40,911 bases of DNA from an uncultured archaeon (GTDB lineage Archaea; Altiarchaeota; Altiarchaeia; JAFGQM01). The translations under genes and the position numbers were made by a program. A model generated the notes under the pieces. The model was not told the DNA's origin. It worked only from the letters and a program-made list of their open reading frames with translations, and searched no databases. Numbering within the stretch: the first letter of the stretch is position 1; the number at the start of each line of letters is the position of its first letter. The stretch covers positions 1-40,911 of the forward strand of contig CAZUDQ010000012.1 of the NCBI GenBank assembly GCA_964619365.1. The letters run 5' to 3'. Shown one piece after another: positions 6,001 to 40,911 of this stretch.

Positions 6001-9000
6001 ATGAATAGTTTAGAGACAATTGCGGTGTCATTATGCTAAAATTGACTTCAGAATTGGACCAATATGAGGAAGAAATGTTAAGTGTGCCACTTACTGAGAG
6101 GTTTAGCGGATCGACTACCCCCCAGACATTGTCGGCATTTATGACCGAGAGATTTGAGAAGTTCCAGTCACTTGGATTATCCGTGTTAAAGAATGTAGTA
6201 TTGACACTTTCGTTGGCAATCCCTGTTGTTCCCTGGAACCTGAATCCGCCGTAAATCTCTGCTGAGTTTTTAGTCTGGTCTACAAATATTAGGGTTCCTG
6301 ATTTACCATCCTCATCGCCCGAGCCGCCTTCCACTCTTGAATTCTGCGGGCTTGTAAATGAGCTTGTGTTATAGTAGATAGCTATTCTTCCACCCGCTCC
6401 GCCGCCAGCACCTGAAACGGCGTATCCGCCATTTGCAATGAAAGTTCCAGTTCCTTGAATCGTGTCTGTCACGACATAGATACTGCCACCAGATCCTCCT
6501 CCGCCATAGTATACTCCGCCCCCTCCGACTTCTCCATTTGCACTGATTATGCCATTTACTGTGAGTGTGCTAGCAATATTAAGGGATATGGCACCCCCAC
6601 CATCACCTCCAGGACCTGACCACTGACCTCCACCTCCGCCGCTCCCAATCTGTGTTGGTGCAAGTGATGAACCATAGACAATTCCTCCTGAGGTCCCCCG
6701 ACTATTTGCACCACCCTGTCCTCCGTGGCCAGCTCCACGACCAGCGTAAGAACCACCACCTCCAGCTCCAGGGCCAGATCCTGAGGTAGCAAGAGGACCT
6801 CCGGCATAGCCTTTATTATCTGCAGATATAATGGAGTCTGAATCAAGAAGCAAAGTGGGGGCGGTTATGTTAGCATTTCCATAGATGCTAGAATTATCTA
6901 GAATAACTGAAGTTCCAGATTGAATCAAAAGAGTGTTCTCTGTAGTGTTTGTAGAGGTCAAGCTTGAATCTTGTAAGGTCATAGTGTCCACATTAAAAGC
7001 GACCATGAGATTTGACCAATCTGAATTGCTTAATTCAAGCTCTCCAATCACTGAGAGATTTAGGGGATCGACTACCCCCCAGACATTGTCGGCATTTATG
7101 ACCGAGAGGTTTGAGAAGTTCCAGTCACTTGGATTATCCGTGTTAAAGAATGTAGTATTGACACTTTCGTTGGCAATCCCTGTTGTTCCCTGGAACCTGA
7201 ATCCGCCGTAAATCTGAGCGGAATTCTTAGTCTGGTCTACAAAGATGAGTGTCCCTGATTTTGCATTGGAACCACCGCCCTCACTGTTTCCTCCGATTAC
7301 TCTTGAATTCTGCGGACTTGCAAACGTGCTTGTATTATAATAAATTGCAATCCTCCCGCCCGCACCACCTCCGCTTCCTACAACGCCATTCCCTCCATTG
7401 GCAAAGAAGCTTCCGCTTCCCTGGAGTGCGTTTGTTATAACATAGATTCCTCCGCCAGAACCGGCTCCACCACCCATCGTCCCACTACCACCGTTTGCCC
7501 CGTTTGCCCTAACTATGCCATCCAGTGTAAAAATATCTGTTATATTAAGCGTTATGGCTCCGCCTCCCGCACCTCCGGCTCCAACCCAAGTAGCTCCGCC
7601 GCCGCCGCTTCCAGGAATTGTCGGTGCGAGTGATGAACCGTAAATAGGACCTCCTCCCGCACTCCCCCTGTAGTTTATTCCCCCTGCACCACCATAACTT
7701 GCTCCGCCTCCAGAATAAGAGCCGCCCGTGCCCCCACCTGGACCATATCCAGTAACTCTCTCGGGACCTCCAATATAGCCTTTACTATCTGCTGAAATGC
7801 TTGCCCCTACATCTATATTCAGGCTGTTTGCAGTCAAGGCAATCGAATTATTCCCGGCGCCGACCGAATCAAAAGTCAAAACGGCATTATTAGTTATTGT
7901 GACAACATCACAGGTTTGATTTTGCGTCCATGTGGTATCTGTCGTTATTGTTATGTTTCCACCAGTCTCAAGACAGTTTGGGTACGGTATGTACTCTATT
8001 GTAACGTTCCAGTGTTCTGTTTCGTTGTTTATGCTTGGGTCACTTGTTAGGTTTGCAAAGGCATAGAATTCATAGGTCGAAGCGTCTTCTCCTGTGGCAT
8101 TCACACTCCAGGTTACGTTTTGACACTCACTCTCATTTAATGATATGTTTTGTGGGTTTAAGTCTGTTGTGTAAAATGGCGTGCCTGAACCATGTGGTAC
8201 AAGACCACCCTTATCTATAACTGGAGGAGTTAATCCCTGGAGTGTCGGATATCCAGTACCATTATTTGAAATGTCCCATACATTTGTGAAGTCCCAGGAA
8301 TTTTCAGGAGGATTTGAATAATCGAAAAAATAGGACTCGTCACTTACCTTTGTACACCCCGAATCCCCGTCATGATAACAATTAGAAGCATCATCGCCTG
8401 GATGGTCCAACCAATAAGAATTCGTAATTAGAGCTCCATACCCCCTCATATAAGCTATAAGACCTCCAACATAACCACTCCCGTGTACAGCTCCTGTACT
8501 ATAAGAATTTAAAGATTTACAAGCATAACAATAACCAACAAGACCACCGGTTTGATTAGAACCCCCAGTAACATCGCCTGTGGCATACGAATCTGAAATA
8601 GTACCATAAGCACTTCCAGCAAAACCGCCGGTATACAAACCACCTATAACATCACCTGTGGCATAACTATCATAGGCTGAGGAAGAAGAAAGACTTCCAG
8701 TAAGCCCGCCAGTATAATCCGTGCCTGTAACATCACCTGTAGCATATGTCTTATTAATTATTGTGTTATAAGCCCAACCAACAAGACCTCCAGTATCCGA
8801 ACTGCCTGTAACATCTGCTAATGAAGAACAATTAAAAATCCTAGAATATGAACTAAAACCGATAAACCCGGCAGTTCTAATACCGCCTGTAACTGTCCCA
8901 GAGAACACATTTGAATTATTGACTCTTGAACCATAATAGATTGTTCCAGCAAGACCGCCAGTATAATCCCCGCCTGTAACGTTAACAGAACTAAGACTTA

Positions 9001-11605
9001 AATCGTAGACATACCCTTTCTTTCCACCACCGGAGTTAGAATAACCAACAACACCAAAAAGACCTACATAACTCTCAGTTGAACGATTGATATAAAGATT
9101 ACTAATGACATGGTTATTTCCATAAAAATAACCAATAAACGAAGTAGTAGAGGACGAATAAGAACTTCCTATTGGGTCCCAACCAGAACCAGTTGTGTAA
9201 CTTGGGTCGCAAAGCGAGAAATCAATATCATTCTGAAGAGAATAATTCCAATCAAGATGTGTTCTTATGTTGTTTAGGTCATCACAAGAGCAGATTGGGT
9301 GCGGGCTTACTCCATCGTCCCAGCAGTCTGAAGGCGCCGGGTCTAAAGAAGCTGTTATATTGCCACACTCACCTGCGAGACAGCAGACTTCTGTTGTCAC
9401 ATCAAAGAACTCGTTTTGGGTCGCGTTAAGATTGCCCGTGGGTGTTACTAAAGATATACTCACACTCGGATTTGAGGGGCTTGGCGGGCTTAATCCTTGT
9501 AATGTTGGATAATCAGTACCATTGTTTGAATCATTCCATACGTTTGTAAAGTCCCAGGATGACAAAGGGGCATTTACTGTATAATAAAAGTATTCAGCAG
9601 TACTTGATCCGCTCCCATTTATAACAGTTCCAGTACGGGTAGAAGTATTCAAATTCTCACTTGTATTGTAATAATATAGTCCTATTAAATTATCTTGTCG
9701 ATTTACATAATCAACAACAGGAGCATGATAAATATTTGGTGATGATGTATTGGAAACAGTAAATACATTTTTGACTGCCCATCCACCAAAACCATAATCA
9801 GTTCCACCAGTAATACCACCGACATGTTGTCCAGCACCAATAATACTAAAGTTACCAACTGAATATGCATTTGTAATACGACTGTATTGTTCATGACCAA
9901 CAATACCACCACAATAAGAACCTCCACCAGTAACATTACCAACAAAATAAACATCCCACATGCTAGAAGAATCAGTCAAATATCCAACCAATCCACCATT
10001 ATATGATCCATAACCATAGATATTAGAATTACCCGCATAAGTTCGATTAATATTGTCACCCTTACAATGACCAATCAAAATACCATTATAACCAGAACCA
10101 CGGATAAACGCGTTTTCAAAACCTAAATCATAAACATTAAATCCATTATTTGTTACACCAAATAACCCGTTATAATCTCCGTCATGATCATCAATTGTCA
10201 AATCATAAATTGTTTTTCCATTACCATCAAGCTGTCCCGTAAAATAATGACTAGTATCATAACCAACTGGGGCAAATCCATCCCCACCATTCCATCGAAC
10301 AGTATCTGAACAATTAATATCATCCATCAAAACATAATAAGCAGTTAGGTTATTTCTCATTGCTTGTAATTCTGTGCAATTATGAATCTGATAAGGTGAA
10401 GCAGAGGTTCCACTTCCAGACAATACTGGGTCGGTAAAAGTTGAAGCGCCATTAAGTCTCAATGTTGGATAAGTATCAGCATGTTCTTCCCAAATATAAT
10501 CTCTATCGAAACCTAATAGCGCACTATTATTCATATTATAAAAAGCACTAATATTATCATAACCTTCTTGACTTATAACAGTACCAGCACGAGTAGAAGT
10601 ATTTGCGTTTTCACTTGTATTATAATAATAAAGTCTAACTAAATTATCCTGTCGATTTACATAATCAACAACAGGAGCATGATAAATATTTGGTGATGAT
10701 GTATTGGAAACAGTAAATACATTTTTGACTGCCCATCCACCAAAACCATAATCAGTTCCACCAGTAATACCACCGACATGTTGTCCAGCACCAATAATAC
10801 TAAAGTTACCAACTGAATATGCATTTGTAATACGACTGTATTGTTCATGACCAACAATACCACCACAATAAGAACCTCCACCAGTAACATTACCAACAAA
10901 ATAAACATCCCACATGCTAGAAGAATCAGTCAAATATCCAACCAATCCACCATTGCTTTCACCAGCCCCAGTAACTACGCTGTTATTAGCATAAGTTCGA
11001 TTAATATTATCCCCATCAACTTGCCCAGCTAAAACACCATTAAAACTAAGACCATTAACAAATGCATTTTCAAATCCTAAATCATAAGCTTCAAATCCAT
11101 TGGTAGTATATCCAAATAATCCATTGTAACTAGTTGAAGGTCTATTAATATACAAATTACTAACAACATAACCCTGGCCGTCAAAGCTTCCTGTAAAAGT
11201 CCCTATGGGTAACCAGCCTTCACCTGTCGTGTAACTCGCGTCGCAAAGCGAGAAGTCTATGTCGTTTTGGAGTTCATAATCCCAGGAAAGTTGGGTTCGC
11301 GTTAAATTTAAGTCATCACATGAGCAGATTGGATGTGGGCTTGTTCCTGCGTCCCAGCAGTCTGTTGTTGAGTTGCCCATCAAACCTGAAACTGGTTCTG
11401 TTTCGTTACCAGTGTCGTTTCCGGTTTCGTTTGATTCTGGAGGCGTCACAAAATATTCGTAGATGTCCCCCTCACCTATTGCAAGACCCTGAGGTGATTG
11501 TGGTGATTTAAAGCTTTCTTCAGATGGACTTAAAATGCTAAAAGATAGGGCAAAAGCCGTAATGAGTATTGCTATGCTTAACACTATTGCGACTTTGAGA
11601 GCCAT
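1..11605 (-). CDS. Giant secreted/surface protein (>3,868 aa, 3' end beyond window): GLUG-motif domains, Gly-rich repeats, LamG domain, Ig-like linkers
   Basis: Hand translation from ATG at 11605 gives MALKVAIVLSIAILITAFALSFSIL (signal/TM). The frame at the left edge (...DDNFTSLNNVYWL) is the same frame. The track lists no large minus ORF here, consistent with no in-frame stop. GLUG-type domain starts occur at ~11360, ~10420, ~9330, ~3640, ~2095 and ~945, each with a G-T-x-x-D/S-P (or similar) start, an FTGxFDG-like motif and repeated GGLVG/GGIVG motifs. LamG-like segment ~3820-4440 (SGKYGGAYSFDGVND...SVSAWVN...FSGSIDEYRIYNRTLSADEI). Many N-x-S/T sequons. Confidence 0.9.
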   Translation of the reverse strand, partial: MALKVAIVLSIAILITAFALSFSILSPSEESFKSPQSPQGLAIGEGDIYEYFVTPPESNETGNDTGNETEPVSGLMGNSTTDCWDAGTSPHPICSCDDLNLTRTQLSWDYELQNDIDFSLCDASYTTGEGWLPIGTFTGSFDGQGYVVSNLYINRPSTSYNGLFGYTTNGFEAYDLGFENAFVNGLSFNGVLAGQVDGDNINRTYANNSVVTGAGESNGGLVGYLTDSSSMWDVYFVGNVTGGGSYCGGIVGHEQYSRITNAYSVGNFSIIGAGQHVGGITGGTDYGFGGWAVKNVFTVSNTSSPNIYHAPVVDYVNRQDNLVRLYYYNTSENANTSTRAGTVISQEGYDNISAFYNMNNSALLGFDRDYIWEEHADTYPTLRLNGASTFTDPVLSGSGTSASPYQIHNCTELQAMRNNLTAYYVLMDDINCSDTVRWNGGDGFAPVGYDTSHYFTGQLDGNGKTIYDLTIDDHDGDYNGLFGVTNNGFNVYDLGFENAFIRGSGYNGILIGHCKGDNINRTYAGNSNIYGYGSYNGGLVGYLTDSSSMWDVYFVGNVTGGGSYCGGIVGHEQYSRITNAYSVGNFSIIGAGQHVGGITGGTDYGFGGWAVKNVFTVSNTSSPNIYHAPVVDYVNRQDNLIGLYYYNTSENLNTSTRTGTVINGSGSSTAEYFYYTVNAPLSSWDFTNVWNDSNNGTDYPTLQGLSPPSPSNPSVSISLVTPTGNLNATQNEFFDVTTEVCCLAGECGNITASLDPAPSDCWDDGVSPHPICSCDDLNNIRTHLDWNYSLQNDIDFSLCDPSYTTGSGWDPIGSSYSSSTTSFIGYFYGNNHVISNLYINRSTESYVGLFGVVGYSNSGGGKKGYVYDLSLSSVNVTGGDYTGGLAGTIYYGSRVNNSNVFSGTVTGGIRTAGFIGFSSYSRIFNCSSLADVTGSSDTGGLVGWAYNTIINKTYATGDVTGTDYTGGLTGSLSSSSAYDSYATGDVIGGLYTGGFAGSAYGTISDSYATGDVTGGSNQTGGLVGYCYACKSLNSYSTGAVHGSGYVGGLIAYMRGYGALITNSYWLDHPGDDASNCYHDGDSGCTKVSDESYFFDYSNPPENSWDFTNVWDISNNGTGYPTLQGLTPPVIDKGGLVPHGSGTPFYTTDLNPQNISLNESECQNVTWSVNATGEDASTYEFYAFANLTSDPSINNETEHWNVTIEYIPYPNCLETGGNITITTDTTWTQNQTCDVVTITNNAVLTFDSVGAGNNSIALTANSLNIDVGASISADSKGYIGGPERVTGYGPGGGTGGSYSGGGASYGGAGGINYRGSAGGGPIYGSSLAPTIPGSGGGGATWVGAGGAGGGAITLNITDIFTLDGIVRANGANGGSGTMGGGAGSGGGIYVITNALQGSGSFFANGGNGVVGSGGGAGGRIAIYYNTSTFASPQNSRVIGGNSEGGGSNAKSGTLIFVDQTKNSAQIYGGFRFQGTTGIANESVNTTFFNTDNPSDWNFSNLSVINADNVWGVVDPLNLSVIGELELSNSDWSNLMVAFNVDTMTLQDSSLTSTNTTENTLLIQSGTSVILDNSSIYGNANITAPTLLLDSDSIISADNKGYAGGPLATSGSGPGAGGGGSYAGRGAGHGGQGGANSRGTSGGIVYGSSLAPTQIGSGGGGGQWSGPGGDGGGAISLNIASTLTVNGIISANGEVGGGGVYYGGGGSGGSIYVVTDTIQGTGTFIANGGYAVSGAGGGAGGRIAIYYNTSSFTSPQNSRVEGGSGDEDGKSGTLIFVDQTKNSAEIYGGFRFQGTTGIANESVNTTFFNTDNPSDWNFSNLSVINADNVWGVVDPLNLSVSGTLNISSSYWSNSEVNFSIMTPQLSLNYSSISAGAMDLTGVDSLTFNYSNLSASDGVVNSIRIKLDNELTLNNSNIYGNSNISALNLFVNNESILSADGKGYPGGPERVNGYGPGGGTGSGSSLAGGGGGHGGVGGKGGSGGYGGTVYSSSLAPIMMGSGGGGATWVGAGGAGGGVITLNIEDVFTLDGIIRVNGANGGSGTQGGGAGSGGSIYAITDTAQGSGSLFANGGNGVSGSGGGGGGRIAVYYNASTFTSPQNSGANAGNSDGNTEPKTGTLIFVDESKNSAEIYGGFRFQGTTGIANESVNTSFFNTDNPSEWNFSNLTIRNADNILGAVNPLNILVSDTAYLSNFTWTNAGIEATLKGTGNTLVIINNTFTDSNLNYNNTRVTIEQEFGTIAWLETLYNIADLSLNTNITLNHTFVDSIDLPGLNESSNITLRNLTFNYTPVIQKDINDNGTFVVCESPMCNALSYNNSTGTFRFNVIGFTTYEASEGLPPFQINFTLPTPNNDTNTTNTSFTVNVSVESELLSNLTYNWNGTEHEIYNASLLLMYNFDNYTRMNDTSIYENNGTCVNCPIWNSSGKYGGAYSFDGVNDRIDIDPSPFGGFLHGSVSAWVNLNAFGGTNCNSHNGITNCVAVGFNDDWGWFFAVNSDGALIFDTSASSSSWNTISNTPAGLVTLDNWYYIAVTTDGTSIRYYLDGVLNYTDTPAYAGFGTGTNDRFGIGGSALSDNYAFSGSIDEYRIYNRTLSADEILLTYNSNLAKTNASNWSLYVNQTGNTSYGLMPGAYIYNATACDQDICQSTESRTITILSQCPNDMDGLGTASDPCIINTVADLSSARECLYCDYELNASLDLSGESNWTPIGNCTGSCYDETNDNPFTGTFDGQGHTLSDLTIDREEDNQGLFGNLYSHNGSGNITNLTIEDAEVTGANYVGALVGNAYGASLLYITIDANMTGAGNIGLLAGQAGRSSLSYIVTSGIVTATNNAGGVAGDGSDSEITHSSSSASVSASYYAGGIFAIGDRANITDVNSSTTTQTEISGIHVHSYSGGIVSYAVDAKIEDCNTLGRMSGNGVIGGLAGYLQGGSVSSCYSQSELVSGGPDTGGLIGIAIGTTIEECESRAAVTGVDGTGGLIGNASGVTITECISSANVSGGINVGGMVGEAQGTTIEDSYALGNVLGANTLGGIVGYAENSHLTNVYSAANVLGASAIGGIAGNASGTITNAYSAAFVFFTSSGAGILGGGNANITNSYWYNRTDGRAINCAPHSNYNCSGETTLEYFYEVDNSPISTWDFPPWDDYCDGVGFQSLAWQDISGTSNCPSFSPMLLACPNGMSGNGTNDDPCEITNRSDIDSMDECPICAYELTTDLDMQSVARTPTTLLLGSFFGNNHTISNFHVPSSSYYRGLIGILLGNASDINFEDVYIRGGTYVGTLAGWAEDSIISNINVTGSLHGYQCGGILGRAQRNVEMSNCSADITQTAGSSHQGGLVGILYYSSITDSHATTDMVDGEYYRGGLVGHSVRSTIKNSYADANIRGVGYIGGLIGYPHTTSFENCYATGNITGGLAVGGIGGYGYYAHIKDSYSLVNVNGGHQVGGIYGRGYRAQVQNVYSAGTLNYATSGGAMFGTNDLNYLTNAYWLNRSTDRANFCTQSTNTGCTAITDESYFFNINNTPISEWSFPPWSDACNTTGYQTLYGTDESCPSFVEPSAMTCPNGMSGDGTLNDPCLLTDADDLAAADSCLVCNYEITSDIDMTGVTWQAPEYLFFGNLDGAGHTISNLAINDRRSYKGGLFGRVTESFKNLSITDFDIKGAYMAGALATRADYATFTDINTSGVMDSTSHYVGSIVGHSSGGSMTRCNFVGNVTGRNHYTGGLAGVYHNAQVTNCSSVGNVKGVYYAGGLFGHATYSRIHESYARGNVSSIYETGGLVGNGQSARVYDSYFDGNVAGERMAAGLLAYAYRATVTDSYASGEVAGTENVGGLIGYSDDATVIDSFAAAPVYYTINGGGIAGDDNFTSLNNVYWL
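5073..7215 (-). repeat. Three tandem ~1 kb Gly-rich repeat units inside the giant ORF; 151-bp near-identical tract 6108-6258 / 7065-7215, more diverged third copy ~5073-5223
   Basis: Direct comparison shows 6108-6258 and 7065-7215 (offset 957) differ at one base. Antisense ORFs ending 5219, 6254 and 7211 all end AIPVVPWNLNPP. Confidence 0.9.
9696..10954 (-). repeat. 305-bp perfect direct repeat (9696-10000 and 10650-10954, offset 954) in two adjacent GLUG domains
   Basis: Base-by-base comparison is identical. The track lists an identical 83-aa off-frame ORF at 9703..9954 and 10657..10908. Flanks are homologous but diverged. Confidence 0.95.
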
Positions 11606-19124: not shown

Positions 19125-20210
19125 TTACTCGTCATAATCTATTGGCCTTGAGTCGCGTCGTTTCTTTGCCGCTATTGCGCAGTACTCTTTGCCCCAGTTG
19201 CGAAATATCTGTTTTTGCAAAAGAAGGGCGGTTTTCTCCATTAGTTTTTGAGGAAGCTCCGCATCAGAATGCGCCATGTAAAGGGGTATGGGGTACCCGT
19301 ATCGCTTGGGGACTCTTGAAAGATAGCTTAGAAGGGACGATATCTCTTCTGCCTTGGCAACTATACCCTTTTCGCCCCAGCTAGGGAAATCGACTCTCAT
19401 TGCGCGCCCCATCTCTGTTGCCTGAAGGTAGAATGTTGGAAACGCACAATCAATTCCCGTTTTGTCCTTCACCCATTTTCGCCCCTTGCTTGAAACAGGA
19501 ATAAATGGTTTTGTTGCAATTGCCTGAAAGGAGTCCATTCGCTGGGAATAAAGCTGGATTAATGAGGCGTCAGTCAATTGAGAAAGAGCTGATGCCGCTT
19601 CATTGGAGAGCCCCTTATCTGAAAGATAACTTATAAGTCCCCGCGAAGTCGAATCTTCAGAAACCCCAACGACTCGCACACCCGATTCTTGAGCTTTTCT
19701 GAGCATCCCGCCCAGTGCCCTGATATGTGCGTGGTATTCGTCTGTTGATATGGGGTCAACCTCGGTTCCCACAAGAAGCGAACCGTCAATCAGGAGATAG
19801 TCTGGAGCCATTTCATCGATAATCCTTGAGCCCATCTCGTATTCCATTGCCGAGCGCAGGAGCTGGACTCTTGCTTTTGTCTGGCGATTTATGGGAATTG
19901 CACCCAAATCCAGATTTCTTAGGAAGTGCCCTGGGTCTTTTCCACCGTCGCCCTTGCAAAACCCGCTTGCGCGGACAAGATATGCTGCGACTCCCGCAAG
20001 TTCGTAAATCCCTTCGCCCCCATCAACAGCGCCAATCCTTGTTTTAGGATATTTTTCCCCCTTTGGATTGTACATCATAGGGTCAAGGCAGGCATCCCTT
20101 AAAAGGAGCTCCATCCCACGGCTGACCTGAGCAAGCATAGAGTCTATTTCAACTTGCTTTTCACGCACACGACTTGACCAAAGCTCATAGTAATTAGGTT
20201 CTTGGGACAT
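19125..20210 (-). CDS. nurA: NurA-family nuclease
   Basis: GAVDGG, LRSAMEY, LIDGSL, VVGVSEDS and GYPIPLYMAH motifs typical of NurA domains. Confidence 0.85.
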   Translation of the reverse strand: MSQEPNYYELWSSRVREKQVEIDSMLAQVSRGMELLLRDACLDPMMYNPKGEKYPKTRIGAVDGGEGIYELAGVAAYLVRASGFCKGDGGKDPGHFLRNLDLGAIPINRQTKARVQLLRSAMEYEMGSRIIDEMAPDYLLIDGSLLVGTEVDPISTDEYHAHIRALGGMLRKAQESGVRVVGVSEDSTSRGLISYLSDKGLSNEAASALSQLTDASLIQLYSQRMDSFQAIATKPFIPVSSKGRKWVKDKTGIDCAFPTFYLQATEMGRAMRVDFPSWGEKGIVAKAEEISSLLSYLSRVPKRYGYPIPLYMAHSDAELPQKLMEKTALLLQKQIFRNWGKEYCAIAAKKRRDSRPIDYDE

Positions 20211-20244
20211 TGTTTAGTTTGTTTATAGGCGGATAATAACGCAT

Positions 20245-20856
20245 TTAGGATTTTCTTGCAATTATTACAAAAAGTTCTTTTTTGTTTGCGTCTTTTCGTT
20301 TGGCAGTCTCGCTTCGGGATATCTCATTTTTGCAGGCTGGACGGACTGCTGTGATAAAACCTTCCTGTTTTAACGCATTTAGGATGTCGACGCATGGGAT
20401 TGGTTTTGAGAGTGATAATAGTTTCTCGCGCTCAGAATCACAAAGCTCGCCTGGGTCACGTCCGGAAAGAATAGAATATATCTCCTTAGGTTCGGCGGGC
20501 ACTTTAGCTTCTTTTGAAATGATATCAGTCATTATCTCGATTTTTCCTTCGGGCTTAAGTGCATTTGACATCTTCTTTAAAAGACCTGGAAAATCGGAGT
20601 TCTTAGCTATGAGCCCCCCTGCAGGGCAGTCTATCCGAATCTCATCTAAGCTATGCCTTTTGGCTAAAACAAAATCTAAAAATTCGTGAGCAGTTAACGG
20701 CGAAAACTGTATTTCTGGAAAACGCACGTCCAGAGTACCAAACTGAGTTGAATCGAGAGTAGAAAAAAATGGGTCAACCAGGGTCCATCCTTTTAGTTTT
20801 TCTATATCCAATGGAATTCGCGACCCCAAATTTGCTTTCACATATAAAGGTTTCAT
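20245..20856 (-). CDS. Hypothetical protein, divergent class I methyltransferase (TrmB-like) fold
   Basis: SLDEIRIDCP and LKKMSNALKPEGKIEIMTD resemble the TrmB LDxIxIxFP and LKPGGxIxIxTD segments; no PDPW and no clear GxGxG. Confidence 0.5.
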   Translation of the reverse strand: MKPLYVKANLGSRIPLDIEKLKGWTLVDPFFSTLDSTQFGTLDVRFPEIQFSPLTAHEFLDFVLAKRHSLDEIRIDCPAGGLIAKNSDFPGLLKKMSNALKPEGKIEIMTDIISKEAKVPAEPKEIYSILSGRDPGELCDSEREKLLSLSKPIPCVDILNALKQEGFITAVRPACKNEISRSETAKRKDANKKELFVIIARKS

Positions 20857-20907
20857 TTTTTAGCTTTTAGACTTATTTTTAAGCGCACAAAAGTAAAGTT
20901 ACTAAAA

Positions 20908-21273
20908 ATGAGCCTGTTTGAAGATATTCATCTCTTGATTTGTATTGTAGCTCTCATCTATCTCTTTGGTAGAATCAAACAGGCGACCCAGTCAAGAGTT
21001 CTTGGAATCTGTGTTGCAGCATTCATCGTATTTTTCATATTCTTCCAGCACGTATGGATAGCTTTCATCTTCTTTTTCGTGATGTTTGGTTACATGTTTA
21101 TAGGTGGTCTTACAAGCGGTATAATGGAAGGGACCATGTCAAGAGCCTACATGGGATATCTTGGAAGCTGGGGTAAAGGCAACAACAGCAATGTCATAAC
21201 GACAATGCCCTCGCCTCAGTTTGGTGCTGGAACTAGCAGCTGGTTTAAAGACGGAAAAGGGTTACAAGGGTAA
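20908..21273 (+). CDS. Small membrane protein (121 aa, about 3 TM, Gly/Met-rich tail)
   Basis: Phe/Ile-rich hydrophobic segments with HVWIAF; ATG follows AAAA as in several other genes here. Confidence 0.8.
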   Translation: MSLFEDIHLLICIVALIYLFGRIKQATQSRVLGICVAAFIVFFIFFQHVWIAFIFFFVMFGYMFIGGLTSGIMEGTMSRAYMGYLGSWGKGNNSNVITTMPSPQFGAGTSSWFKDGKGLQG

Positions 21274-21283
21274 CTAGATTATT

Positions 21284-21628
21284 ATGGACTCATCTGCCTT
21301 CTTGTTCTTTCTTATAATAATAGCCCTTTGTCTTATGTCAGGCAATCAAACACTTATGTATGTTGGTGTGGGTATTGGTGCCATGTTCTTGATACTCATG
21401 GGTGGCGCTCACCATATAATAGTCGCCGTTCTCGCCTTGGGTGCAGTATATGGAGGTTATGTCCTTAGTGAAGGAGGTAAGGGTGATACTACTTTTCTTT
21501 TAGGTGGCCTTCTTGTAGCAGCTGGGCTCTTTATAGCATTCGTCCTTAAAGGGCACGACGAAGGTGAGGGTGAAGGTGGAATGGATGCATACGGTATGGG
21601 TGGTCTTGGGCTCCCCATGGGTTACTGA
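21284..21628 (+). CDS. Small membrane protein (114 aa, about 4 TM, Gly/Met tail)
   Basis: Gly-rich hydrophobic segments; tail GEGEGGMDAYGMGGLGLPMGY; 10-bp gap from the previous gene. Confidence 0.8.
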   Translation: MDSSAFLFFLIIIALCLMSGNQTLMYVGVGIGAMFLILMGGAHHIIVAVLALGAVYGGYVLSEGGKGDTTFLLGGLLVAAGLFIAFVLKGHDEGEGEGGMDAYGMGGLGLPMGY

Positions 21629-21666
21629 ACTTTTATAATCCCCGCCGTTAAGCTTTCGGTTTAGAA

Positions 21667-22908
21667 ATGTCAGGGAAATATTTTTCAGGAAAGCTTAAAC
21701 TGGGGAAAGTTTATGTCCCTTGGATAAGTAGTTTTCCTAAAGGCGCTACATATGCCTGCAATAGATGTGGTGCATGTTGCATGTATCGTGTTGATCTCTC
21801 GCCAAAAGACCTTATGTCCCTTAAGTCAAAGGGGTATTATGACGCAATAGAATACGACACAGAAAAATCAGGCAGCCCTAGTCCTTCAATAAAAAGACTT
21901 GATGATGGACGATGTTTTTGCTTAGGGCCTAAAACCAACTGTGAGATATATGGAAATCGGCCGCATGTTTGCCGTCAATTCCCTTTTCAGATTAGTACGG
22001 GTTTTGAAGGTGAGCTTGTCATTGATTTATCATATTCCTGCCCCACCGTAAATGAAAAAAACGCGGCTAAAGTAAGTTCAAGCCAGATTCGTGAGGCATT
22101 GAGCCTTTTTTTAGAGCACCGTGGGGAATTCGTTCCTGCTTCATTGGAATATGGGGAAGGAATGTCAAATGCGCTCAATTCGGCGTTTAGCCCTGCCTAT
22201 GTACCAAAGAGTGTAAAGTATGAATTTTATGATAAAGCAGCACAATTATTGCTTAATGCAGAAGGCACAACAGATTTGCTTGAACTTATGCGCAATTGGG
22301 AAGATGTTGTAAGCGACGGCTGTGCAAAAACCCCTGTGCGGGAAATAGCAAAAAACGCAGGTACCGTGCTATCCAATCTAACCGAGCTGGTAATACCTGA
22401 TACTTACCACTTATCAAAAAATAGGTATGTGAAGTTGTTTTCCGATCTTGAAAACAGGCTGCTTGTATGGGACGAGTCAAAACTTTATGTCTATACTGCG
22501 CGAATAGGACCATTTTGGGCTAAATTCGGCGACCGGAGACTTTCTTGGAGTAAAATAAAGAAAATACAGTACACAAGAGAGGCACTCTTTGATATGGCAA
22601 ATTATATTTCAACTATAATCAGACGCCCGATATTCGAAGACGCGGTAGTAAATGTCGTTAGCTATAAAATAAACTATCTGAGAGAGCCTGTGCGTGAATA
22701 CGAAGTAGGAGCAACACTAATTGCAAATGCGCTTTCAAACTATCTTGATTGCGTGTGCAAGATATCTGCTGCATTAAGGGGAAGTGATGTTGTTGATTCA
22801 GTTGACTTCCGCTGTGCACAGATGAATGTGGACCAATATTTTATGGGGGCTTTAAATTCAGGCACAATAAGTAGAGCCTTGATTGATGCTATTAAAAAGA
22901 ATTCTTAA
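21667..22908 (+). CDS. YkgJ-family (CxxCxxCC) cysteine-cluster protein with long C-terminal extension
   Basis: CNRCGACC, GRCFCL, CEIYGNRPHVCRQFPF, YSCP. Confidence 0.85.
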   Translation: MSGKYFSGKLKLGKVYVPWISSFPKGATYACNRCGACCMYRVDLSPKDLMSLKSKGYYDAIEYDTEKSGSPSPSIKRLDDGRCFCLGPKTNCEIYGNRPHVCRQFPFQISTGFEGELVIDLSYSCPTVNEKNAAKVSSSQIREALSLFLEHRGEFVPASLEYGEGMSNALNSAFSPAYVPKSVKYEFYDKAAQLLLNAEGTTDLLELMRNWEDVVSDGCAKTPVREIAKNAGTVLSNLTELVIPDTYHLSKNRYVKLFSDLENRLLVWDESKLYVYTARIGPFWAKFGDRRLSWSKIKKIQYTREALFDMANYISTIIRRPIFEDAVVNVVSYKINYLREPVREYEVGATLIANALSNYLDCVCKISAALRGSDVVDSVDFRCAQMNVDQYFMGALNSGTISRALIDAIKKNS

Positions 22909-23207
22909 CGTAAAAGACCTATGGCGCGGCCCATTGAGGTTCCCCAATGTTCACCGACTTCTTCCCACCAGTTGTTTCCGTCCCATCCTGGCTGATATTT
23001 CACGCGAAGCATCTGCTCTTTCATAGCTTCTGAGACTGGACCTTGGTCGGGCGCCTGATTGAACATTTGTGGTTTTGTGGTTTTCTGGTCATTACTAAGG
23101 GTTAAAATCACCATAAGAACACCAACCCCTAGTGCAATCCACACCTGTCCCTGAGCTAGAGCGAATATCACAAGTAGCAGTAGCACCAATACAAGAACAG
23201 TGTTCAT
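22905..23207 (-). CDS. Small membrane protein (100 aa, N-terminal TM hairpin)
   Basis: Two hydrophobic stretches around QGQVWIALG; Trp/Gly-rich C-terminus. Confidence 0.8.
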   Translation of the reverse strand: MNTVLVLVLLLLVIFALAQGQVWIALGVGVLMVILTLSNDQKTTKPQMFNQAPDQGPVSEAMKEQMLRVKYQPGWDGNNWWEEVGEHWGTSMGRAIGLLR

Positions 23208-23239
23208 CTTCGTTAAATTAACTGGGAAATCTATATAAA

Positions 23240-23692
23240 TCAGTCCATTTGGGGTAAGAACGGATTTCTTTTATCCCGCTCAAGTGAAACACCATTCGCT
23301 TTTGTCGGCATGGAATAGGTAGTGTCTAAGAACCTATTGACTTCTCCTGCGATAGGAACAGGAAGATTAAAATTGCCATTTTCAACAAAAGGCGTTTTGG
23401 GTGCTTCCCCAAAGGGGTCTTGTGCTCTTGACACTGGGTCACGCCCGTCATCTGCCATTAAGTTTTTGACATTTGCACTCACACCGTTTCTGGCTCTTGC
23501 CTGAGGCATGAACTCTTGTTGTATTCCTGTCGCACTACCAAATCGTGAGGGGTAGGCGAGCCTTGTTGAGTTCTTTTCACCCATTGAGACAAGAATCGCG
23601 CCGATGGCAACCATGGCGGCACCAATCCACAACATCTGTGGAACGAATAAAAGCACGCCACCCAATACCACCACGTATATCGCTAGATTCAT
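23240..23692 (-). CDS. Membrane protein (about 150 aa, N-terminal TM hairpin, Pro/Gly-rich tail)
   Basis: PQMLWIGAA between two hydrophobic stretches. Start placed at MNLAI (23692), just after the upstream stop; the track start at 23710 is also possible. Confidence 0.8.
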   Translation of the reverse strand: MNLAIYVVVLGGVLLFVPQMLWIGAAMVAIGAILVSMGEKNSTRLAYPSRFGSATGIQQEFMPQARARNGVSANVKNLMADDGRDPVSRAQDPFGEAPKTPFVENGNFNLPVPIAGEVNRFLDTTYSMPTKANGVSLERDKRNPFLPQMD

Positions 23693-23694
23693 CG

Positions 23695-24285
23695 TTATTC
23701 TTGTGCCCATTCATCAAAGCCTGTCTTGATAGTATCAAAGGTCGAGTCTAGGCATTTTGTCTTTAGAATGGGCTTTCCTGTCCTGAAGTGGGCTGTTAAA
23801 AGATTTGTCATCACTTTGGTTCCATCCCCAGCTTTATCGCTCATAAACGGCATATTAAGTCGTATGTCATCTTTTATTCTAATACGACCGATATTGGTAT
23901 CCGTTCCTGTAGCATAAAAACTGGCAGTACCTGTACGGCCACCCACAGTTAAAGGGGATCCTGTGGGACCATATGCTTTGATTCCTGCAACACCGTCAGG
24001 AGGTATCGATGGCCTAAACTGTAATGGATCTTGAACACTACCAAACTCTTCTTTCTTTTTTGGAGGGGCGTTTCTTACTGTATTATTCGCGGCATCCATC
24101 ATGGCGTTTGTGTAAATTGTCTCCTGTCTTGCAGATTTAATTGCTTTTGCCGAATCATTATCATTTGCAACAACGGCCATAGTAAGGACTATTATACTAA
24201 TTCCAATCCACCAAGGTAGTCCTATTATTATGAGCAAGAATCCTGCGCCTATTAAGGCCAAAAGCGAGCTTGTGCCAATAGCCAT
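23695..24285 (-). CDS. Membrane protein (196 aa, N-terminal TM hairpin, soluble tail)
   Basis: GLPWWIGISII between two hydrophobic stretches; tightly packed with its neighbours. Confidence 0.8.
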   Translation of the reverse strand: MAIGTSSLLALIGAGFLLIIIGLPWWIGISIIVLTMAVVANDNDSAKAIKSARQETIYTNAMMDAANNTVRNAPPKKKEEFGSVQDPLQFRPSIPPDGVAGIKAYGPTGSPLTVGGRTGTASFYATGTDTNIGRIRIKDDIRLNMPFMSDKAGDGTKVMTNLLTAHFRTGKPILKTKCLDSTFDTIKTGFDEWAQE

Positions 24286-24307
24286 TGTATTTGCCCTTGT
24301 GGGCTAC

Positions 24308-25441
24308 CTATTTCTTCTCAAGGATCTCGATAAGCTTTATGTTAAGGTCGCGAAGCGTGTCAAGAAGCTGTTTGACATCAGCCATCTGCGATTCCATCTT
24401 ATCCATCCCCTCAGTCAGCCTGTCTGCTGTTTCCTTATCCAATTTTTCCTCCTCTTCAGGTGAAAGTTCTCCTGTTGTTGAGCGTGATATGGGTTCTTCT
24501 TTTGTTTCCTCTTTGGAATCCTCCTTTTCCACACCAAGGTCAGATTCGGGTTGTGAAGATATCTGCTGTTTTATTAATGCAAGGCGCTTTTTTACTGATT
24601 CATCTACTGCGCCATCTTTTTTCTTTTTCTCTTTTGCTTTTTTGTCTTTTGGCTCGTCTTTTTCTGGTTTTTCCTTGGACTTATTCTCTTTATGTAAGAA
24701 ACCAAAATGCCCTTCTTTTTTCTTTTTTTGCTCTTTTTTGATATTTTCTTCTTTCTTTTTGTCAATATCAGGGACTTCACCTTTTTCCTCGGGAATACTT
24801 TTTTCCGGCTCCGTATCCTTTTTGTCTTTTGGCTCGTCTTTTGGCTCGCTTAGTAAAGGCGGCATCTCAGCTTCGCCCTTGTCTGTATCGGACTCGACGG
24901 TTTCATCCGCTTTTACCTCAGAAAACGGGTCTGAAAGATTGTCTAATGAAAAATCAAAATCATCATTTTCTGAAAGCTCGTCAGACGAAGTTTTTTCATC
25001 TGGTTTTTTAAGGAGAATGTCTTCTGGGGCTTTTGGCCGCTCAGTTGCAACAGGCTCTTCAATAAGTTTGCCGTGAAAGTGGTGGGGTTTTGGTTTTTCT
25101 TCCCCCTCTTTTTTTTCCTTGTGTAAAAAGGAGAGAAATCCACCTTTTTTCTTTTCTTCTTTTGAAGTTTGTTCTGTCACTTTTTCTTCTTTTGCCGCTC
25201 CAGGAGACGCATCCTTTGTAACTGGCAAGGGAGTCTTTGGAAGAACTTCCTCCAATTCTTTTTGTTCTGTTGTAGACTGACTCGTGCTCGGTTCGCCACT
25301 TAGTTTCTTGGCTTTTTTGACAAGATGATGAATTTCCCGCCCAGATAATCCAAAATCAGCCAGCTGGAACTTAACTTCGTCATCACTCATTCCTTCTTCA
25401 TAAAGCTTTGCTACAAGTTCCTCGGGTGTGGAGTCAGCCAT
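24308..25441 (-). CDS. Lys/Glu-rich low-complexity protein with small N-terminal helical domain and C-terminal coiled coil (about 377 aa)
   Basis: Start re-placed at MADSTPEELV (25441) to avoid overlap with the divergent gene at 25506. Long K/E/D/P-rich linker and a heptad-like C-terminus (MDKMESQMADVKQLLDTLRDLNIKLIEILEKK). Confidence 0.8.
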   Translation of the reverse strand: MADSTPEELVAKLYEEGMSDDEVKFQLADFGLSGREIHHLVKKAKKLSGEPSTSQSTTEQKELEEVLPKTPLPVTKDASPGAAKEEKVTEQTSKEEKKKGGFLSFLHKEKKEGEEKPKPHHFHGKLIEEPVATERPKAPEDILLKKPDEKTSSDELSENDDFDFSLDNLSDPFSEVKADETVESDTDKGEAEMPPLLSEPKDEPKDKKDTEPEKSIPEEKGEVPDIDKKKEENIKKEQKKKKEGHFGFLHKENKSKEKPEKDEPKDKKAKEKKKKDGAVDESVKKRLALIKQQISSQPESDLGVEKEDSKEETKEEPISRSTTGELSPEEEEKLDKETADRLTEGMDKMESQMADVKQLLDTLRDLNIKLIEILEKK

Positions 25442-25505
25442 CTTTAATAGCGCATTCATATAATTATGCATTAACTTATTAAAATCAGCCGAGTGATAAA
25501 AAAGA

Positions 25506-27005
25506 ATGGCCCAGCGAAGCGTTTGGAATCTGCCTGGAGGTCCATGGGATCGCCTTTTTGCAGGCATCTGGAATGGATATAACGTCGCAGTTTACGAAAA
25601 CCCGAATAAAACCCTGTTAACCACCATATTCCCAAAAGTAGGAAGCGTTAACTGGATAATGATTAGGGTTGACCATATACTACTTGTACCTAAGGACTTT
25701 GAAAAAATAGAGTCGAAGCTTGCAGAAAGGAAAATGAATGTCCTTAAGCAAAGGGTTGCTGGTAAAGGGATGACTTATCTCATGCTGCTTTCAGATCCTG
25801 AAACTGTTGATTTTGGAAGCAAGGAGATAGGTGAAATCGTCTTTAACAAAGATATCGAATTAGAAAGGGAAGTTGACGAAATAAAGGCTATTGGAAGAAA
25901 GGCAAAAGTCGAAATATTAGAGCTTAAAGATGCATCCTACAAAGAAAGCGCCGGTATCCTTGGGAATCCAACGATGCTTCTTGGAATGCTCAGTGTCGCC
26001 CCGGGCGGTGACGCCCCAAAAAAGGAGATGCTTGGTGAGATTTCCCTAGGGAAAACTGATGACGGGATATTTTCTGTTTCCCCACAAATATTCTCTCAAT
26101 TCTGTGGGATAAAAGGCGGCAAGCGAGAAGAGCAGGCCGCAATGATGCAGCTTATCGCTGAAGAAGCAATTATTGATGCACCCCCAATCCCAATAATCTT
26201 TGATTTTGGGGACGTACCATTAAAACTTGACGTTGCAAATCCTTACCCATATGACTATTCCGAGTATGGACTTTCGAATCATCCGGGCAAATTCAAGATT
26301 AATCATTACGAGTTAACAGAGGACGCGTGTCCACTAAAAATAAACTTAAATACTGCCAGGCCAGAGCTTCTTGTGCGTATCTTTGGTCTTGGGAAAGACA
26401 ATTCCTCATTGCTTATATTAGAGTCAATAATGTCCCTTAAAAAAACAAAGCGGGAGATAAGTTTTGACTCAATTAAAACAGAGGCTGGCGAGCTTGCAAA
26501 AAGCATAGGCAAAGAAAACGCATTGCCTCGCGCCTGCGACCTGTTAAGGGCTCTTTCAATAAGTTATGATAAAATAATCTCGAACTCATCTGACGCAAAA
26601 TCCGAGATTGTTTCGTGGATTCATGATAATAAGACTGTGTATCTGGCAGCAAATACTCTTAATAATCAGGAAAGATTTGCTCTTTCATTATACCTTTTTG
26701 ATATAATAGAGTCTGAAAAGGGTGGGGGAAATCTTGATGAAATTGACATAAAACGAGCAGAAAATATATATCCACTCATACTTAACCTCTCCTGGATGGG
26801 CGATTGCGAGTTTGCAAACGAACTTATAAAATCAATAGTGCAGATGGGTAGGGGCGTCTTTGCAGATGTCAATAAAATCCCGATAAAATTAGAGAGCGTT
26901 GCACTTTCACGAATACAGGTTCTTGGACTAAAGAAGGCAAAGTATTTTGATTGTGGACGAGGGACTGAATTTGAGCCTAGACCATTACTCTCATGTCCGC
27001 CTTAA
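25506..27005 (+). CDS. Hypothetical protein, degenerate HerA/FtsK/VirB4-like P-loop fold
   Basis: The order ISLGK...CGIKGGKREEQ...LIAEEA...PIIFDFG matches the HerA/DUF87 layout, but GKS/T and the downstream DEAH are missing. ORF is secure; family call is by eye. Confidence 0.6.
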   Translation: MAQRSVWNLPGGPWDRLFAGIWNGYNVAVYENPNKTLLTTIFPKVGSVNWIMIRVDHILLVPKDFEKIESKLAERKMNVLKQRVAGKGMTYLMLLSDPETVDFGSKEIGEIVFNKDIELEREVDEIKAIGRKAKVEILELKDASYKESAGILGNPTMLLGMLSVAPGGDAPKKEMLGEISLGKTDDGIFSVSPQIFSQFCGIKGGKREEQAAMMQLIAEEAIIDAPPIPIIFDFGDVPLKLDVANPYPYDYSEYGLSNHPGKFKINHYELTEDACPLKINLNTARPELLVRIFGLGKDNSSLLILESIMSLKKTKREISFDSIKTEAGELAKSIGKENALPRACDLLRALSISYDKIISNSSDAKSEIVSWIHDNKTVYLAANTLNNQERFALSLYLFDIIESEKGGGNLDEIDIKRAENIYPLILNLSWMGDCEFANELIKSIVQMGRGVFADVNKIPIKLESVALSRIQVLGLKKAKYFDCGRGTEFEPRPLLSCPP

Positions 27006-38890: not shown

Positions 38891-40911
38891 TTATTGTTTT
38901 TCTGAATCCTCTTGTCCTGAACGCTTGCGCAACACTATAACTGCAAGGATTCCAATAATCACAATTACTGCAATTATCAGAGCTATGCTCTCTGTTGACT
39001 TAAGTAGTTCTCCAATGAAATTCTCAGTTTTCTTTGAAGACTCAATAACCTCTAGTTTTCCATCTGATTTACTCTCTATGTCTAAGGTTTCATAATTGCT
39101 GGCATATCCTTCCTTAGATACCATAATCGTCCACTTACCTTTTTCAAACAAATGGAAGCCGTCGTTATAAGATACAATTTTACCATCTGGGGTTACAAGA
39201 CGGATAAGAGCGTCATTTATGATGTTGCCGTCTTTATCAGTCACCACGACATCAAGAACGCCGCCCAATCTGCTGTCATTGTTGATTATTACAATGAGTT
39301 CACCTTCTGAATCATTAAGTACGTCACATGTGTCTACCATTTGTCCATTACCGAGGCAATTACCGTCTGCACACGAACACTCGCACATGCGAGTCTTGAA
39401 GCCTGCGTCGCATTCTGACCACGGACCACATTCCCAGGAAGCATCACAGGATTCATTGATGCACTCATCGGATAACACACCTGGGAGACATATACCATCT
39501 TCGCAATAGTCACCAGTTGTACAGATATCGCCGTCATCACAGGAGTTCCCGCTAAGAAGCTCTATTACACATATCCCATCGATGCACGAAACGTCTGTAC
39601 ATGGATTATTGTCATCCTCGCAGGTGACATCACCACAAAGATTACATGACCTTGTTGTTTCGTGGTCGCCGCGGCAGTCATCGTCATCTGGACAACCACA
39701 ATGGCAGTCTCGCGTCTGGATGCCGTTTGCGCACGCACTCCAGTCTCCACAGTACCAATCCCTGCGACACGAGCCTGGCGGTGTCGGGTTCACGCATGAT
39801 ATTCTTGCTGTGGCAGAATCTGAATCTGAGGCGTTGCCGTAATCATTTGATATGCTTGCTGTGACTGTCCTTGTCACATTTGTTGTCGGGCAGGAGACGC
39901 TCTGTGAGTAGCGCGTCACGTTTGACTCGTTTATTCCAAGCTCCACTGTGAAATTAGCTGTCCATGAAGGGGCTATTGTGACGTTTGCCCCGTATTCTCC
40001 TGTGTTTGTCACATTTATAGTCCAGGTTAGCGTGCCACGTAGTGAGAGTGAACTGGGAGATACTCTGATGACTGCTGAGACATTCTGGTCTGCTTCAAGC
40101 ACGACAAATACTTCCTCATCACTTGACGCACTGTAGTTCTCGTTTCCGGCAGTAGAGCAGTTTATGTCGTGGTCACTGGGCAGGAGTGTATATGCGCCCT
40201 GCCCCCTTGGTGTGCCATCTATCCTTAGGACCGGGGTTAATCCGCTTGGAGTGACATTACAGGTGAAATTGACTGAGGTGTTAAATTCTACGGGGGATGA
40301 TTCGTTAGTCTCAACTGATATTGTTGAGGCGGCCTTATTTATTGTGTAGCTTGTGGAGTTTGCCGCGCTTGTGTAGTTCTCTGACTCACTTAGCGTGCAG
40401 TTTATGTCGTGGTCATCTGCGGCTAAGGTTACCAGAGTCCCACTTACTGCCGGACTTCCGTCAATTGTGAGACTTGGTGTGCCAATCCCTGTGTCAATAG
40501 TACACGTCGGTGTTATTGCCGTGCCATAAGTCTGTGGTGAGGCTGGAACGACTGTTAGGTCTAGTTTTCCAACGGCTTTTGTTATTGTTATATTGGTTGA
40601 ATTTGTCGCAGCCGAGTGAGTCGCTGAGGCCGCAGCATCGCATCTTATGAGGTGCTCGGTAGCTGAGATGTCTTGGGCGCCCTCTGTGACTATTTCGCCG
40701 TCGATTTTAAGGGTTGTGACTAAGTCTCCTGGATCAGGCGTGCAAGTGATTGAGAGGCTTTCTCCGTAGACTGTGGAACCTACGATGTTTATTGCAACAC
40801 TTGAATTGGCAAGGCCAACGCTGTAGCTCATTGAGTCGTTTGCCGCGTTGTAATTGCTTGATTCTGCTAGCGAGCAATTGAATTCATGAGTATCAACACT
40901 AAGAGTCGATC
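38891..40911 (-). CDS. C-terminal part of a large membrane-anchored surface protein (Ig-like repeats, Cys-rich repeats, C-terminal TM); 5' end beyond window
   Basis: Frame stays open upstream of the track's Met 40831 to the window edge (STLSVDTHEFNCSLAESSNYNAANDSM). About 80-aa two-Cys repeats, WxCGxWSxC and CDDGDICT motifs, TM IALIIAVIVIIGILAVIVL followed by RKRS. Confidence 0.9.
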   Translation of the reverse strand, partial: STLSVDTHEFNCSLAESSNYNAANDSMSYSVGLANSSVAINIVGSTVYGESLSITCTPDPGDLVTTLKIDGEIVTEGAQDISATEHLIRCDAAASATHSAATNSTNITITKAVGKLDLTVVPASPQTYGTAITPTCTIDTGIGTPSLTIDGSPAVSGTLVTLAADDHDINCTLSESENYTSAANSTSYTINKAASTISVETNESSPVEFNTSVNFTCNVTPSGLTPVLRIDGTPRGQGAYTLLPSDHDINCSTAGNENYSASSDEEVFVVLEADQNVSAVIRVSPSSLSLRGTLTWTINVTNTGEYGANVTIAPSWTANFTVELGINESNVTRYSQSVSCPTTNVTRTVTASISNDYGNASDSDSATARISCVNPTPPGSCRRDWYCGDWSACANGIQTRDCHCGCPDDDDCRGDHETTRSCNLCGDVTCEDDNNPCTDVSCIDGICVIELLSGNSCDDGDICTTGDYCEDGICLPGVLSDECINESCDASWECGPWSECDAGFKTRMCECSCADGNCLGNGQMVDTCDVLNDSEGELIVIINNDSRLGGVLDVVVTDKDGNIINDALIRLVTPDGKIVSYNDGFHLFEKGKWTIMVSKEGYASNYETLDIESKSDGKLEVIESSKKTENFIGELLKSTESIALIIAVIVIIGILAVIVLRKRSGQEDSEKQ

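Follow-up and report, generated by a model that had tools for sequence, protein, structure and literature searches.

A conserved block of small membrane genes around a degenerate HerA/VirB4-like protein in DPANN archaea, with a possible role in handling giant surface proteins

Ten genes at an Altiarchaeota locus

The window analysed here is the whole of a 40,911-nucleotide contig (CAZUDQ010000012.1, our contig C12) from an uncultured archaeon, whose genome (1.21 Mb, 85% complete) we take to belong to a small Altiarchaeota family, f1, on the basis of a homolog of the 499-aa protein described below that carries the label Ca. Altiarchaeota (43% identity). Between kae1-bud32 and pgiA, an initial annotation had proposed a membrane machine of ten genes with a role in DNA uptake or cell contact. 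All ten open reading frames (ORFs) are present between these flanks, on the strands claimed. The 64-bp divergent gap it described is correct when the gene for the lysine- and glutamate-rich (K/E) protein begins at the ATG at 25441; this start agrees with those of relatives in the alignment and gives a 377-aa protein in which K and E make up 36% of residues. The conserved unit, referred to below as the module, is seven of the ten genes, encoding five small membrane proteins, the K/E protein and a 499-aa protein of the HerA/VirB4 family. The genes of the module, its further parts elsewhere in the same genome and the remaining genes of the block are as follows.

20908..21273, plus strand: tm1, 121-aa hairpin membrane protein, core
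21284..21628, plus strand: tm2, 114-aa polytopic (about 100 aa) membrane protein with a Gly-rich tail, core
22905..23207, minus strand: tm3, 100 aa, N-terminal membrane hairpin and a tail with an amphipathic-looking terminal helix, core
23240..23710, minus strand: tm4, 156 aa, hairpin-plus-tail, member of the tm3 series by position
23695..24285, minus strand: tm5, 196 aa, hairpin-plus-tail, member of the tm3 series by position
24308..25441, minus strand: K/E-rich coiled-coil protein, 377 aa, core, head-to-head with the pseudo-ATPase gene
25442..25505, no strand: AT-rich spacer of 64 bp, presumed divergent promoter
25506-27005, plus strand: 499-aa pseudo-ATPase of the HerA/VirB4 (FtsK-HerA) family, core
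C5:63350-64026, same genome: tmA and tmB, paralogs of tm1
C3:49770-50066, same genome: cc2, second coiled-coil protein, head-to-head with polB
19125-20210, minus strand: nurA, ORF for NurA, passenger
20245-20856, minus strand: gene for a 203-aa protein, no family match in Pfam or NCBIfam, passenger
21667-22908, plus strand: 413-aa CxxCxxCC/YkgJ-type protein, family-restricted insert, not core

The 499-aa protein is a pseudo-ATPase with a HerA-like fold

The 499-aa protein gave no significant match in Pfam or NCBIfam. A profile search recovered 173 representatives of its family at 50% identity, and a family profile of 130 sequences (most of the full-length matches together with close relatives) matched the solved structures of HerA (4d2i, E 1.7e-7) and YjgR (E 1.4e-6). 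The AlphaFold (AF2) model, with a predicted local distance difference test score (pLDDT) of 92.9, has two parts, an alpha/beta front domain at residues ~1-165 and a RecA-like domain at ~175-499. Residues 176-499 of the model superpose on HerA 4d2i (Foldseek E 4.4e-12; VIA Z 23.1, root-mean-square deviation (rmsd) 3.0, 281 aligned) and on VirB4 4ag5 (VIA Z 20.1, rmsd 3.4, 285 aligned). Profile match and fold agree with the HerA-like label that the protein had received, and the RecA-like HerA/VirB4 fold, on which the initial proposal depended, is present in the model.

The catalytic motifs are lost throughout the family. Walker A (GxxxxGK[ST] at its position) is intact in 0/130 members, as is Walker B (hhDEA/hhEEA; 0/130), and two further motifs, looked for anywhere in the sequence, occur in none of the 130 ([ST]Q[RN]P) and in 4/130 (E[GA]RK). 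Because no member keeps Walker A or Walker B, the whole family is, as judged from sequence, a pseudo-ATPase.

HerA's N-terminal HAS barrel binds NurA. In our model the alpha/beta front domain stands where HerA has this barrel, and the HAS barrel was not among the front domain's listed structural matches. Modelled alone, residues 1-164 (pLDDT 91.6) fold into a sheet with long helices, which matches type III secretion chaperone/YbjN folds best (Z 7.6, rmsd 3.2, 110 aligned). The N-terminal part of VirB4 (7o42) ranks below these (Z 6.0, rmsd 3.4, 122 aligned). The modelled domain is thereby suggestive of a chaperone-like or VirB4-like fold, a hint short of an assignment.

The module spans four DPANN groups in a near-fixed gene order

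Full-length orthologs of the pseudo-ATPase were found in 41/401 archaeal genomes, comprising the source genome, six others of its family and 34 distant ones; a seventh family genome has an ortholog fragment only. The other 53 genomes of the source class contain none at full length, their matches being weak, partial, at the level of ordinary HerA, or nil. Orthologs occur in 130/132 genomes of one DPANN phylum, probably Iainarchaeota, in 19/20 of a smaller DPANN phylum and in 25/201 Micrarchaeota genomes, with no match in the other 176. The gene is nearly always single copy. Calling the block lineage-specific, as was done at first, understated its range, for the pseudo-ATPase spans four DPANN groups. 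In genome G256 the block appears twice with the same scores (contigs C1 and C8), probably through assembly duplication. We also considered a link between autotrophy and loss of the module in Altiarchaeota and dropped the idea, CdhC being found in 0/5 genomes, two of them without the module.

The usual gene order, shared by the majority of 28 loci examined in the two module-bearing phyla (all outside the source family), is tmA-tmB-tm1-tm2-tm3(n) / KE / pseudo-ATPase / cc2 / polB. The K/E gene diverges from the pseudo-ATPase gene in 28/28 of these loci. At least one tm1-family gene (tmA, tmB or tm1) is present in 27/28, tm2 in 24/28, and cc2 and polB in 26/28 each, some of the misses being contig ends. 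Neighbourhood conservation in other archaea, the check suggested with the initial annotation, revealed a near-fixed order in the module core. Among 19 Micrarchaeota loci, 11 carry the K/E and transmembrane genes in module order, with the K/E gene again divergent from the pseudo-ATPase gene, and one, on a short contig, has the pseudo-ATPase with cc2 and polB. In the source genome the parts are spread over three loci (the window, tmA-tmB on C5 and cc2-polB on C3) with none lost, and tmB lies on a separate contig in 5/5 family genomes.

The small membrane proteins fall into two series. tmA, tmB and tm1 are paralogs (hhalign 91-98%) with no significant match to Protein Data Bank (PDB) sequences, Pfam or NCBIfam. 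The second series includes tm2, which is related to tm3 (hhalign 96%, with a few tm2 rows in the tm3 alignment), and tm3 itself, which has one to four paralogs in relatives. tm4 is kept in family loci L021, L022, L024 and L165 and is matched weakly by the tm3 profile (E 0.04), and tm5, likewise kept in family loci, has a profile that matches tm3 at E 0.019. Both would belong to the tm3 series by position, their homology being weak. The tmA profile missed true Micrarchaeota homologs, and its misses there carry no weight on absence; in two Micrarchaeota it matched Lon protease, in the membrane segments, and these matches were rejected as spurious. C5:62636-63074 holds a short tandem repeat with an N run, immediately downstream of tmA-tmB and a pair of small coiled-coil/membrane genes.

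The K/E protein consists of a small N-terminal helical domain, a low-complexity linker and a C-terminal coiled coil. Its profile also matches the source genome at C10:48390-49364, C3:80137-80790 and C2:68339-68776 (E 4.5e-6 to 0.011). As the match on C2 lies near an active herA gene, the K/E protein's helical domain is likely to be promiscuous.

A single-copy gene, near-universal in two phyla, that encodes an FtsK-HerA fold might instead serve a scaffold for cell division or chromosome anchoring, in which an FtsK/HerA-derived ring is tethered by small membrane proteins and coiled coils and co-regulated with DNA polymerase B. That cc2 stays head-to-head with polB even at split loci, as in the source genome, fits such a scaffold. 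However, the pseudo-ATPase was not found in 176/201 Micrarchaeota, nor at full length in the 53 other genomes of the class, and the tagged surface proteins and the exclusion of a secretion-type system described below would be left unexplained. We regard this scaffold as improbable.

The module co-occurs with tagged giant surface proteins

Directly upstream of the transmembrane genes, many distant loci encode a giant exported protein. The two full-length giants that we scanned contain CarboxypepD_reg/Big_1 domains and immunoglobulin (Ig)-like repeats. The giants share an N-terminal segment of ~60 residues that ends in a membrane anchor, which we call the tag (profile A12). We followed the tag and tm2 through 80 chosen genomes, namely all 25 positive and 29 of the 176 negative Micrarchaeota, eight from the two phyla, five of the family and 13 other Altiarchaeia. 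The tag profile matched 38/38 genomes with the pseudo-ATPase (1-10 copies each) and 2/42 without it, and the tm2 profile matched 36/38 and 0/42, respectively; both profiles were built from positive genomes, and misses in the negatives may partly reflect distance. The positive Micrarchaeota were detected by both profiles although none was included in either. In G665, G667 and G716, where the pseudo-ATPase has relocated, tm2 still lies ~10 kb from a tagged giant. One of the two tag-positive genomes without the pseudo-ATPase, G549, has a single weak match.

The source genome encodes eight tagged proteins of 549-2206 aa. The window itself holds a giant ORF (2-11605, minus strand; at least 3868 aa) that runs off the contig and has a signal-like start resembling that of several giants, without the N-terminal tag. 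At its other end, 38891-40909 (minus strand) is a 5'-open gene whose product looks exported and gives a weak match to a carboxypeptidase-regulatory-like domain (E 0.012).

These distributions also bear on the possibility that two or three unrelated modules (giants with transmembrane proteins, K/E with the dead HerA, and cc2 with polB) only travel together because one archaeal clade has conserved this block of its chromosome. The locus does break at these seams, into three loci in the source genome and into a lone pseudo-ATPase in 7/19 Micrarchaeota loci, and polB and map are housekeeping genes carried along. Yet the split parts are kept or missing jointly, as the tm2 and tag counts given above show, across the Altiarchaeia and Micrarchaeota boundaries. 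Co-inheritance therefore seems an unlikely account of the whole.

Most Micrarchaeota carry a CedA-like system in place of the module

The CedA model NF041796 has no match at E<=1 in the source genome and weakly matches tandem membrane genes in four small genomes. From these tandem genes we built a CedA-like profile, which detected 177/201 Micrarchaeota. In this phylum, two genomes have both systems, 23 the module only, 175 the CedA-like genes only and one neither, four negatives in this table being inferred from absence in the positive list. The two double-positive genomes (G665 and G667) have one CedA-like copy each. The profile matched nothing in the source genome, 0/7 genomes of its family and, of the two module-bearing phyla, 0/42 genomes. 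CedA-like genes are present in 2/31 other Altiarchaeia; in G030, contigs C146 and C155 carry three, through transfer or bin contamination. Kin are not independent, and the exclusion pattern may come down to two events, a single replacement within Micrarchaeota and a single loss within Altiarchaeia.

Six CedA-like genes accompany a Walker-A ATPase gene in five of eight stretches examined (frameshift-split in one), and pilin-like genes are found in four of the eight. The loci L134-L138 and L141 (genomes G528, G619, G627, G535, G713 and G553) are chromosomal and resemble Ced and type IV secretion systems (T4SS). They combine a tandem run of six CedA-like genes with a VirB4/HerA-like ATPase that has both Walker A and B, two 277-aa membrane proteins that are paralogs of each other, and pilin-like genes. 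Following the active ATPase is a small helical domain like the N-terminus of the K/E protein (E 5e-6 to 8e-3; hhalign only 18%). The front domain of the pseudo-ATPase had no hhalign likeness to the two 277-aa proteins or to one CedB N-terminus. We found no paper on Micrarchaeota with VirB4 and VirB6.

Peptidoglycan-hydrolase-type genes lie at Micrarchaeota module loci (L093:2497-4908 and 30-512; L106:11006-15860). Two loci encode membrane-anchored NlpC/P60 and SLT proteins in the interval from the pseudo-ATPase to cc2; in the same set of loci (L093, L106), a gene for an M23 peptidase adjoins the K/E gene. Such domains in these archaea hint at bacterial targets.

The near-perfect exclusion raises the alternative that the module is a degenerate type IV secretion or Ced-like conduit for DNA or solutes, in which the dead ring would be what is left of a VirB4, tm1, tmA and tmB would be pilins or subunits of a channel that have diverged very far, and the motor would be an active HerA whose gene lies elsewhere. 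Consistent with a conduit, the front and RecA-like domains of the 499-aa model each align with VirB4, in the same order, the source genome has two Walker-intact HerA genes (contigs C2 and C5), and the CedA-like genes are missing from the family and the two phyla; the K/E-like helical domain behind the active Micrarchaeota ATPase and the NlpC/P60 and SLT genes at two module loci can be read likewise. On the other hand, no CedA or CedA-like gene was found in the source genome (85% complete), tm1, tmA and tmB showed no likeness to one CedA1 sequence or the Micrarchaeota pilins, 34 loci gave no flagged Walker-A HerA next to the module, and most other Altiarchaeia have neither system. A conduit is rather unlikely in our estimate, and DNA uptake stands only as this rival reading.

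nurA and two further genes are not part of the core

NurA had been counted as a component of the machine. Its identity is secure (Pfam E 9.5e-23), and the protein is a second NurA paralog with apparently intact acidic motifs and the only NurA found in the source genome. One other family genome, G002, has both nurA (58% identity for NurA) and the 203-aa gene close to tm1, and nurA is not beside the block in G001, G003 or G004; among the family genomes for which flanks were available, it adjoins the block in 2/5. Outside the family, a nurA profile made from a single sequence found it near the module in 0/47 loci (28 plus 19). The 203-aa gene was found in 1/5 family genomes (G002, next to tm1), and its 'TrmB-like' label has no support in Pfam or NCBIfam. 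On these neighbourhood counts we rejected both proteins as core parts, and no HAS barrel was among the listed matches of the 499-aa protein's front domain. The YkgJ label of the 413-aa protein holds (Pfam E 1.7e-12); the gene is kept in family loci L021, L022 and L024, is not between tm2 and tm3 in G002, and is absent from 28/28 loci outside the family.

As first described, mre11 and rad50 are not inside the window; both are on contig C6. A canonical nurA-herA-mre11 run occupies a separate locus in G001, G002 and G004, with rad50 seen in G001 and G004. In the source genome, for which a look for such a locus had been suggested, the corresponding locus (C6:26332-32885) has mre11 and rad50 and lacks the nurA-herA pair that relatives have there, an apparent deletion. 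The active HerA proteins of C2 and C5 would be likelier partners of the window NurA.

A candidate apparatus for giant surface proteins

The fold, the motif loss, the gene order, co-retention after splitting, the co-distribution with tagged giants and the near-exclusion of the CedA-like system lead us to propose, at slightly less than even confidence and from sequences and models, that the module forms a scaffold in the membrane for the assembly, export or anchoring of tagged giant Ig-repeat surface proteins and serves as a cell-contact apparatus. The seven core genes with tmA, tmB and cc2 would encode a single membrane complex. The dead ATPase may still form a ring beneath the membrane, in a scaffold role, and its front domain may bind the tag or, by their tails, the small membrane proteins. 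These proteins could themselves form a membrane ring, braced by the coiled-coil proteins. The tag would be the cytoplasmic, N-terminal part of giants that mediate attachment to host or prey. Energy, if required, might come from Sec translocation, an ion gradient or an active HerA acting in trans. Of the first proposal, a conserved machine around a degenerate HerA/VirB4-like protein stands, and cell contact is plausible.

Several observations weigh against this scaffold. In 7/19 Micrarchaeota loci the pseudo-ATPase had no other module gene in the stretch examined, and G656 has seven tagged proteins with neither pseudo-ATPase nor tm2 found. The source genome has 33 ORFs above 1000 aa, six of them tagged, leaving many untagged giants. 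The tight linkage of cc2 to polB (26/28 loci) is unexplained by it. No structural match to the front domain reached Z>=8, and the tool rates scores below 8 as unremarkable. Finally, kin share genes, and the co-distribution of tag and module may reflect only two or three independent losses.

A broader version of the scaffold proposal, which we hold to be possible though doubtful, posits an envelope machine, not described before, that much of DPANN would have inherited from a common ancestor. The dead ring, with a chaperone-like front domain, would read the tag and build giants into a host-contact organelle through a ring of tiny membrane proteins, most Micrarchaeota having swapped in a CedA/VirB4/pilin system for the same job.

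Few of the components that let DPANN archaea attach to other cells and feed on them have been named. The module offers a near-universal, single-copy candidate complex for two DPANN phyla and, in the N-terminal tag, a candidate substrate signal; most Micrarchaeota, with a mutually exclusive Ced/T4SS-like system, provide a natural contrast. It also presents an entire family of dead FtsK-HerA ring proteins retained over deep time. What is added here is the occurrence in an Altiarchaeota family, co-retention across split loci, tag co-distribution and CedA-like exclusion. The module would be less novel if its small proteins prove VirB2/VirB6-like.

Comparison with known systems

We found no published description of the block in titles or the opening parts of abstracts, and supplementary arCOG-type tables may list its families; the available portions of PMC11329633 and PMC6393860 do not mention HerA. 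The HerA-NurA complex (PDB 4d2i, 9x1l) shares the RecA-like HerA fold of residues 175-499, and nurA is nearby in the source genome. Unlike HerA, the 499-aa family lacks Walker A and B and has an alpha/beta front domain with no HAS barrel listed; its neighbours are membrane proteins, and the canonical nurA-herA-mre11-rad50 operon is separate in relatives.

The Ced and Ted DNA import systems (CedA, CedA1, CedA2 and CedB), as described in the accessible part of PMC9905601, resemble the module in that a chromosomal HerA/VirB4-family protein is encoded with small membrane-hairpin proteins. In contrast to these systems, the module ATPase is dead, no CedA/VirB6 channel of 6-7 transmembrane segments was found, and there are extra coiled-coil proteins and tagged giants. 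Neither sequence nor profile comparison revealed a likeness of tm1, tmA and tmB to one CedA1 or to Micrarchaeota pilins; CedA1 and TedC likewise share no sequence likeness, according to the same part of PMC9905601. Membership in Ced, raised at the outset, is contradicted by the lack of CedA in the genome, the lost ATPase motifs and small proteins that have no detectable likeness to CedA1 or TrbC-type pilins. By these comparisons, the module works neither as HerA-NurA nor as Ced.

The T4SS of Patescibacteria, from what the available text of PMC12102498 reports, is likewise a chromosomal VirB4-family system of small host-dependent cells, with arrays of paralogous small membrane proteins and co-option beyond conjugation. 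Its VirB4, VirB3/PrgI, VirB6 and VirB2-like pilins are recognisable by profiles (PMC12102498, same portion), whereas none of its membrane parts was recognised in the module, and the likeness is one of analogy. The Micrarchaeota CedA-like locus differs in that its ATPase is active, with Walker A/B, and is accompanied by six CedA-like channel genes and by pilin-like genes; in hhalign comparisons none of these is homologous to tm1-tm5. It is nevertheless comparable to the module in having a similar small helical domain beside its ATPase and a complementary distribution within Micrarchaeota, a phylum that bears both.

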